A DNA stretch of 64,000 nucleotides from Escherichia coli. Lineage in GTDB: Bacteria > Pseudomonadota > Gammaproteobacteria > Enterobacterales > Enterobacteriaceae. Made by a program: the position numbers and the translations under genes. Positions 1 through 61,789 of the stretch are shown piece by piece. The first letter of the stretch is position 1, and each line of letters begins with the position of its first letter. A model generated the notes under the pieces. That model saw only the letters and a program-made list of their open reading frames with translations. It was not told the origin of the DNA and did not search any database. The stretch lies in NCBI RefSeq assembly GCF_003334405.1, contig NZ_QOWM01000003.1; one strand, 5' to 3'.

Positions 1-64
1 TTTTTCTGCTCATTATTAGCTCCTTCTGATGCCATTCTATTTCAGGAAGGAGTGTCCGTTAAAC

Positions 65-1194
65 TCAGGCTACCTCATCTTTATCCAGCATGTTGAATTT
101 GTATGCAGTATAAACGTTCATGTTCTTATTAAAGTAGTACCAGGTACCAACTTCAATGTAGTTCACACGGTCAGCGTCAACATATCTATGTCCGGGTACC
201 CCTTTGATATCTTTACCTTTAGAGTACACATAACCTAAGGACGGACGCAGACCAAAGTCGAATTGATACTGAACAACCGCTTCAAAGTTCTGGGTTTCAT
301 TGATAAGTTGATCACGCATTATTGTATTGCCTTCTCGATCGGCAACACCTGTATCAATAGAACCCGGAGTCATATTACGAGTTTCGCCGTACATTACAGC
401 TGCGTAGACATTTTTCGCGTCATACTTTGCAGCCAATGACCACAGTTCAGCATTTGAACCGTTTCCATCGGCAACTTGATCGTTGGTGCGATCAGATTTG
501 CTATATGCACCAACGATACCAAAACCATTGATGTTATAGTCTACAGACAACGCATAGCCGTCACCATTTTGTTTCTTAGTGCTACGGTTGCTGTTTTTGC
601 CTTGGTACTGAATCGCAAAATCAAGACCATCAACCAGGCCAAAGAAATCATAGTTACGGTAGGTTGCAACACCGTTGGTACGACCATTCATGAAGTTGTC
701 AGCGGAAGCCCAGGAATCGCCACCCCATTCAACTAACATATCGGTATAAGCTGCGGCATCATAAGCAACACCGTAGTTACGGCATAGTCAAATGATCCTA
801 ACTCGTTATATTTCAAACCGGCGAAGGTTAAACGGGTTTTTTCTTGGTTTTCACCTTCGGGCTTGCTGGCGTCGAGGTTGTATTCAAACTGACCAAAACC
901 AGTCAGTTCGCTGGTGATTTGGGTTTCACCTTTAACACCGAAACGAGCATAGGAGGTATCTTCGTTTTCGCTGTTATTATCATCAGTATTTGACCAGATG
1001 CGTTCGCCAACCATCTTGCCGTAGAAATCAACTTTATTGCCATCTTTATTATAAATTTCAGCCGCATTTGCTGCGCCAGCAACTAATAACGCCGGGACCA
1101 GCATTGCCAGAACTTTTCTTTTCATTATGTATTCCCTTGTGATTATAATCTTCATGAATATATCAATAAGTGCCGTTATCCAAAAAAAGCACAT
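65..1194 (-). pseudogene. yedS: OmpC/PhoE-family general porin, disrupted (YedS-like)
   Basis: Minus-strand ORFs 733..1194 (signal peptide [21 protein letters not shown]) and 65..739 ([23 protein letters not shown] porin motif) form one porin split by a 1-base frameshift near 783-786; C-terminus ends ...MLDKDEVA without the usual terminal Phe. Confidence 0.8.
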
Positions 1195-1434
1195 TTGGAT
1201 ACTATTCTATGAAGTTCATTTTATTTTAAGGATTACATGTAACAAATGTATTTAAAAGATTTCAAAATGTTTCTAATCTATTTAATATAATTCAGAATTA
1301 TGAATTCTGAATATAAGCATTCATGAAAATTATGAATTTATATCAATAAGTTATAAGTTGAGCGGAAAGATAGGGAGTATCAATGATTGTTACGCCAAAC
1401 ACCTGGTGTGATCACGCGCACATTAATGAAGGCA

Positions 1435-1530
1435 TAAAAAAAGCCGGCATCATGCCGGCCCAAAAAATATAAACAAGACGATAAAAGGCTAATAACGGAG
1501 GCATCATGACACAGAAAAATAAAAAGGTAT
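1435..1530 (-). ncRNA. Candidate small RNA ending at a strong intrinsic terminator (position matches RseX of K-12 as recalled)
   Basis: Minus-strand hairpin GCCGGCATGATGCCGGC (1443..1459) followed by a T8 run, in the yedR-yedS intergenic region; 5' end not determinable from sequence. Confidence 0.3.
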
Positions 1531-7156: not shown

Positions 7157-9681
<2,525 letters not shown>

Positions 9682-9861: not shown

Positions 9862-9948
9862 AACACATCAGATTTCCTGGTGTAACGAATTTTTTAAGTG
9901 CTTCTTGCTTAAGCAAGTTTCATCCCGACCCCCTCAGGGTCGGGATTT
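9862..9948 (+). ncRNA. dsrA: DsrA small regulatory RNA
   Basis: 87-nt sequence AACACATCAGATTTCCTGGTGTAACG...CCCGACCCCCTCAGGGTCGGGATTT recognised as DsrA, ending in a GC hairpin plus T-run. Confidence 0.9.
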
Positions 9949-43172: not shown

Positions 43173-43248
<76 letters not shown>

Positions 43249-43302
43249 GTTTAAAAGACATCGGCCTCAAGCGGATGTCTGGCTGAAAGGCCTGAAGAAT
43301 TT

Positions 43303-43376
43303 GGCGCGTTAACAAAGCGGTTATGTAGCGGATTGCAAATCCGTCTAGTCCGGTTCGACTCCGGAACGCGCCTCCA
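43303..43376 (+). tRNA. cysT: tRNA-Cys (GCA)
   Basis: 74 nt, anticodon loop ATTGCAAAT, 3' CCA. Confidence 0.95.
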
Positions 43377-43388
43377 CTTTCTTCCCGA

Positions 43389-43474
43389 GCCCGGATGGTG
43401 GAATCGGTAGACACAAGGGATTTAAAATCCCTCGGCGTTCGCGCTGTGCGGGTTCAAGTCCCGCTCCGGGTACC
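43389..43474 (+). tRNA. leuZ: tRNA-Leu (TAA)
   Basis: About 86 nt with long variable arm, anticodon loop ATTTAAAAT, 3' CCA. Confidence 0.93.
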
Positions 43475-61676: not shown

Positions 61677-61704
61677 TTCTCCCGATTTCCTCAATTGAAA
61701 TGAA

Positions 61705-61731
61705 CCCGATGATCTGCGCATCGGGTTTTTT
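61705..61731 (+). terminator. Intrinsic terminator after cheW
   Basis: Hairpin CCCGATG atctgcg CATCGGG followed by T6. Confidence 0.8.
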
Positions 61732-61762
61732 ATTTCAATTTCGCGGCGGGTGGCATCAGCAA

Positions 61763-61789
61763 TAAAGTTTCCCCCCTCCTTGCCGATAA
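61763..61789 (+). promoter_or_regulatory. Sigma-28 (FliA) promoter of the tar operon
   Basis: TAAAGTTT-N11-GCCGATAA, exact consensus, about 30 bp upstream of tar. Confidence 0.85.

Follow-up and report, generated by a model that had tools for sequence, protein, structure and literature searches.

The window, by which we mean the whole 64,000 nucleotide stretch of Escherichia coli DNA analysed here, begins with the end of an insertion sequence, the remains of a porin gene (yedS, see below) and a small RNA gene, all of them on the minus strand. The pseudogene as a whole occupies positions 65..1125, running from an ATG at 1125 to a TGA at 65-67, and identical genomes carry at these coordinates a PGAP feature labelled 'porin, frameshifted'. 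The ORF listing for this region contains two minus-strand frames, 733..1194 and 65..739, which the sequence-only reading of this DNA had taken to be a single porin, and translation in two frames confirms that they are. The ATG at 1194 is a mere mechanical in-frame extension upstream of the true start at 1125 (MKRKVL...), which is also where PGAP starts the yedS pseudogene in the identical genomes. Signal peptide codons take up 1063..1125 and are followed by a mature N-terminus of the AEIYNK type, both of which match the OmpK35 precursor when aligned residue by residue, and as this segment is also identical in an intact allele of the gene the earlier claim of an intact signal peptide holds. The 5' fragment ORF (733..1125) encodes 114 porin residues followed by 16 out-of-frame residues and a stop at 733-735. 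The site at which the frame shifts is at 783..784 and the porin coding part 3' of it (78..782) lies in the -1 frame relative to the start and encodes what are residues 115-350 in the intact protein. Positions 1..77 are filled by the left end of IS600, an element of the IS3 family, and on the other side of the gene lie its upstream region with 5' UTR and promoter (1126..1435), conserved with the intact and K-12 alleles, and the rseX small RNA gene (1436..1525), which lies outside the pseudogene and serves as a locus marker.

With a view to identifying the gene, positions 1-1400 of the window were compared by megablast with 5,426 complete E. coli genomes. This returned a 100% match to FORC 064 (1400/1400 nt), in which the locus is annotated as 'porin, frameshifted' and then 'transposase', together with matches of ~98-99% to strains whose 'porin' CDS is intact and matches to IS600 transposase annotation. 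The intact allele used throughout as the reference is WP_000824355.1 from NRZ105822 (L002:4277-5392), a 371 aa protein that ends in ...AVGIVYQF and is also found in many other strains. We compared it with the solved porin structures 9hn1, 5o77, 5o78, 3hw9 and 2j1n, which cover OmpK35, OmpF, PhoE and OmpC, and it aligns end to end with solved porins, up to the last residue (VYQF) of the OmpK35, OmpF and PhoE structures. Among these it matches Klebsiella OmpK35 best (E=8.7e-145) and then PhoE, OmpF (2.2e-118) and OmpC (3e-92). The product of the window gene after one G is put back is 353 aa long and is recognised by Pfam Porin_1 with E=1.7e-111, over model positions 1-317 of 337 only.

Three named porins were considered and rejected as the identity of the gene, as the scores of the intact allele fall short of the NCBIfam cut-offs, with 449.9 bits against 583 for OmpF proper, 417.4 against 484 for OmpC proper and 414.4 against 599 for PhoE proper. 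The gene is thus a separate paralogue within the general-porin family. Beyond rseX the window continues with drpB, yedJ and dcm, and in the identical genomes hchA is found past the IS elements. As K-12 MG1655 has the pseudogene yedS annotated at the same position with the same rseX arrangement, the synteny drpB-rseX-[porin]-hchA identifies the porin gene as yedS. Its identity is settled by the synteny, by the intact allele at 99.6% identity and by the Pfam, NCBIfam and PDB matches: the window gene is yedS, a paralogue of the OmpF/OmpC/PhoE general porins that is called ompS1 in Salmonella. The description of the gene as an OmpC/PhoE-like porin was therefore right as to the family (OmpF/OmpC/PhoE, Porin_1) but not as to the member, given the NCBIfam cut-offs and the yedS locus. 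In the literature yedS has been equated with Salmonella ompS1 and named as a possible pseudogene (PMC2731931), and rseX-yedS has been handled as one unit (PMC8313858). That yedS can be a pseudogene is already known, and PGAP already labels the window-type gene 'porin, frameshifted'.

Alignment of the window with the intact allele of NRZ105822 shows that one G is missing from TATGGCCGT at 783/784, where GG has lost one of its two bases and codon 115 changes from GGC to GCC. The deletion of this 1 bp interrupts the porin reading frame and turns GSFDYGRNYG into GSFDYAVTT..., just as the sequence-only reading had described in locating a single frame break near 783-786. In the rest of the retained part the two alleles are very similar, with 99.6% nucleotide identity and 3 substitutions, of which 1 is missense (Asn to Lys at 413, 3' of the frameshift) and the others silent (at 194, 3' of the frameshift, and at 844 in the 5' part). 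The shift site reads GACTAT-G(G)-CCGTAAC, that is to say a dinucleotide and not a homopolymer tract, and a search of the site (GACTATGCCGTAAC) found no slippery, repeat or homopolymer tract. Programmed frameshifting and phase variation were rejected as candidates on the grounds that the site has no slippery or repeat tract.

The second lesion lies at the 3' end of the gene. Positions 1-77 of the window, read as the reverse complement, are identical to nt 1-77 of the complete 1264-bp IS600 of BL21(DE3), and therefore the E-V-A codons and the TGA stop with which the distal ORF closes are IS sequence. The inverted repeats of IS600 (TGAGGTAGCC... and TGAGGTGTAC...) are of the TG...CA type; its left end starts TGAGGT..., the terminal inverted repeat in the window reads TGAGGTAGCCTGAG..., and an orfA ATG at 13-11 opens a frame that runs off the window. 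IS600 and the porin point the same way, the left end of the element being at window 77. The match to the intact allele ends at window 75 and IS600 extends leftwards from 77, the bases 75-77 (TGA) being common to porin and IS600, so that the position of the junction is ambiguous by 3 nt. Porin residues 1-350 are kept and the last 21 codons (DAAITGAAADDQFAVGIVYQF) are gone, including the last beta-strand and the terminal Phe, in keeping with the Porin_1 match, which stops at model position 317 of 337. Accordingly the distal window ORF ends in ...LDKDEVA with its stop at 65-67, in place of the ...AVGIVYQF of the intact allele, and lacks the C-terminal last strand with its aromatic end (..VYQF). 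The atypical C-terminus had been noticed correctly from the letters; its cause, which is the junction between porin and IS600, had been missed. It follows that the gene does not carry one single-base frameshift as its inactivating lesion, as had been supposed, but two lesions, the IS600 junction being the other.

As the window stops 77 nt into IS600, the structure past its edge was taken from other genomes in which the overlapping part is identical, namely FORC 064, identical over 1400 nt, and AP022215 and others, in which window 1-25000 matches full-length as a single piece with a listed identity of 100.0%. In these identical genomes the DNA that follows the right end of IS600 is found, in the intact locus, 186 bp further on, and the ~186 bp that has been replaced consists of 64 nt of coding sequence and ~122 nt downstream of it, including a terminator hairpin that is present in the intact allele inside the deleted stretch. 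No 3-bp target-site duplication was found at IS600 in the identical genomes, where the flanks are AGA and TAT. A simple insertion of IS600 with the 3' end of the porin displaced downstream can be ruled out: the right end of the element lies 186 bp on and the missing codons are absent, which means that the 3' end was deleted and not displaced. The IS600 of the identical genomes is itself split by IS30 at nt 333-335, and in VR50 and KSC64 a further IS3-family insertion of ~1.34 kb has entered the gene at a point between its frameshift and its junction with IS600. In VR50 (L005 1155-3551) the downstream IS30 is split in turn by another IS3-family element, which makes the locus a nested IS graveyard.

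The upstream side of the gene is much better preserved. The 200 nt before the ATG are the same as in the intact allele and K-12 save for a T7/T8 run at ~1183-1189, 58-65 nt upstream of the yedS start, of which the window, FORC 064 and EC101 have the T7 form and both K-12 and the strain with the intact allele the T8 form. A scan for consensus promoters upstream of yedS gave 8 sites against 6.2 expected, no better than chance, so of the earlier statement that the promoter is intact the conservation of the upstream region stands, while the consensus scan lends it nothing. Given this conserved upstream region, transcription of the yedS pseudogene may persist and, the terminator having been removed, may run into IS600 orfA. 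Directly upstream of the dead yedS, the gene for the Hfq-binding small RNA rseX appears intact; it scores 96.7 bits with Rfam RF01401, whose gathering score is 50, and has a terminator-like hairpin at 1461-1441 followed by a T-run that is T7 in the window and T8 in the intact-allele strain and K-12.

Elsewhere in the window a second pseudogene is dgcQ (yedQ) at 7157-8851 (+), which encodes a diguanylate cyclase regulating cellulose synthesis. An in-frame stop at 8090-8092 splits it into two same-frame ORFs, 7157-8092 and 8096-8851, and PGAP marks it 'internal stop' in an identical genome. Between fliE and yedF, at ~22800-26100, lies a small island that by the annotation of an identical genome contains emrE, ybcL, ybcM and an IS200/IS605 tnpA, in addition to two truncated genes for an HTH protein and an SOS-response-associated peptidase; in K-12, emrE, ybcL and ybcM belong to the DLP12 prophage. 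At the Rfam gathering threshold the window also yields the small RNAs DsrA at 9862-9948 (+) and C0465 at 61696-61773 (-) and a three-tRNA cluster at 43173-43472 (+), which in an identical genome consists of Gly, Cys and Leu, all of them ordinary for the region.

Looking at the distribution of the two lesions, the exact 80-mer covering the frameshift is present in 106 complete E. coli genomes and the 80-mer covering the porin-IS600 junction is matched in full in 110. Carriers of the frameshift and junction include 55989, many independent O104:H4 outbreak assemblies, UMNK88, VR50 and FORC strains. Two chimeric queries were then searched, one combining the frameshift with an intact 3' end and the other combining a restored GG with the IS600 junction. 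The former had no perfect match in the genomes, its best matches at 99.7% being to GG-intact genomes. The latter matched 2 genomes perfectly and 2 more with one further difference, and these four GG-intact junction genomes span 858 nt as against 857 in the others; they make up exactly the gap from 106 to 110. They are EC101, G47-1, CM194533 and OkiPb01711, and of these EC101 was read and has a continuous 353-codon ORF identical to the repaired window protein. Since the junction occurs without the frameshift in four genomes and the frameshift without the junction in none, the IS600 truncation most likely came before the frameshift, by parsimony. This order depends on the four genomes, in which reversion or gene conversion could have restored the G.

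Taken together we consider it very probable (roughly 93%) that yedS here is a non-functional, doubly hit pseudogene, truncated by IS600 with an adjoining deletion and then frameshifted by one base. Comparison with the intact locus shows that IS600 and the adjacent deletion of ~186 bp, as the first step, took away the last 21 codons together with stop and terminator, and that the porin frame now enters the inverted repeat of the IS for 3 codons and ends in ...KDEVA. One G of the GG at codon 115 would then have been lost when the gene was already dead, an order that parsimony favours, and the intact start would since then yield only a 130-residue fragment carrying the signal peptide. Later still, IS30 would have entered IS600, and in VR50 and KSC64 another IS3-family element the porin itself. 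In PhoE and OmpF the C-terminal Phe, as part of the beta-signal recognised by BAM, is needed for assembly, and closure of the 16-stranded barrel needs the last strand. With the frame broken at codon 115 and both the C-terminal strand and the Phe absent, the window allele is predicted to be unable to give a barrel-forming porin. The suspicion that even a corrected frame might not encode an assembly-competent porin gains support in that the ORF of EC101, like that of the repaired window gene, ends in IS600.

Other accounts of the locus have to be weighed against this one. Assembly often introduces single-base indels, and the missing G might accordingly be an error in a gene that is really one ORF, a homopolymer sequencing error having been raised earlier as a possible cause, but the site is a GG dinucleotide and not a homopolymer run, and the identical frameshift in 106 complete genomes from many laboratories and years excludes a sequencing artefact. 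Even with the G restored the ORF would end in IS600, and we give this explanation practically no weight. Continued function of the locus might be suggested by the intact start, signal peptide and upstream region and by EC101, whose truncated, un-frameshifted form is an ordinary 'porin' CDS in PGAP; the frame would then be restored by a programmed or phase-variable shift, or the truncated 353-aa protein would itself work as a porin. Against this we have a shift site with no slippery or repeat tract, the missing final beta-strand and terminal Phe, the deleted terminator and the extra IS in VR50 and KSC64, as would be expected in the absence of constraint, all of which make retained function highly improbable. 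A reversed order of events, with the frameshift first and IS600 arriving later in a dead gene, was implied by the sequence-only reading, and since the lesions occur together in 106 genomes the order is mostly not directly observed. Such an order seems improbable to us as it has to accommodate four genomes with the IS600 junction and an intact GG and the lack of any genome with the frameshift and an intact 3' end, and would require either that the identical IS600 junction arose twice or that the G was restored.

A separate question is whether the loss of yedS was selected, for example through escape from phages or colicins that use the porin as a receptor or through reduced antibiotic entry, or whether it reflects neutral decay of a silent gene. 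Inactivation has occurred independently at the same locus in K-12 by a TAG and a frameshift, and the K-12 80-mer around the TAG is present in 357 genomes, but many of these are laboratory derivatives and hence not independent. An active YedS reportedly contributes to carbapenem entry (a result ascribed to Warner et al. 2013, AAC 57:1935, which citing papers describe differently), and such a role would fit with selection for loss. Relaxed selection on a poorly expressed paralogue predicts the same pattern, however, and we regard selected loss as the less likely view, though one that deserves some consideration. The broader proposal, that yedS has been destroyed repeatedly and independently across E. 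coli lineages by selection against an expressed YedS porin, we consider doubtful, and slightly more so than selected loss as such. If the selection reading were true, the four genomes with IS600 only would represent a snapshot of the first step.

On the preferred reading, that of a doubly hit pseudogene, yedS in the window offers a tidy and datable case of stepwise gene decay at a porin locus already known to be prone to pseudogenes, and in itself matters little. Its practical bearing is on annotation. The IS600-truncated, un-frameshifted yedS of EC101 (NZ_CP196707.1, L007:2734-3795), which ends in KDEVA, is carried in RefSeq as 'porin' WP_061352651.1, and this porin without its last beta-strand illustrates a blind spot of annotation, in which 3'-truncated genes pass as whole when the end of an IS gives them a stop. 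Where carbapenem susceptibility is to be inferred from porins in genome sequences, the 3' end of yedS should be checked as well as its frame.

Comparison with known systems places the window allele among several related forms. The yedS of K-12 (b4496; formerly b1964-b1966) is likewise an inactivated porin gene and lies in the same place, between rseX/drpB and hchA, with its first 69 nt of coding sequence identical to those of the window and a near-identical upstream region. Unlike the window allele it is divergent after the signal peptide, with a mean column identity of 80% over the gene and other loop indels, and it carries no IS, its lesions being an in-frame TAG and a 1-bp deletion, whereas the window has IS600 and another 1-bp deletion; as the lesions differ, yedS has been inactivated independently at least twice. 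The intact WP_000824355.1 differs from the window allele in that it has both GG at codon 115 and its own terminator, runs to 371 codons and carries no IS600. OmpK35, OmpF, PhoE and OmpC are homologous to this intact allele from end to end, in contrast to the window copy, which is truncated and frameshifted. Finally, IS600 (1264 bp) supplies in its left end the whole of window 1-77, and in the identical genomes it is associated not with a duplication but with a deletion of ~186 bp and is interrupted by IS30.
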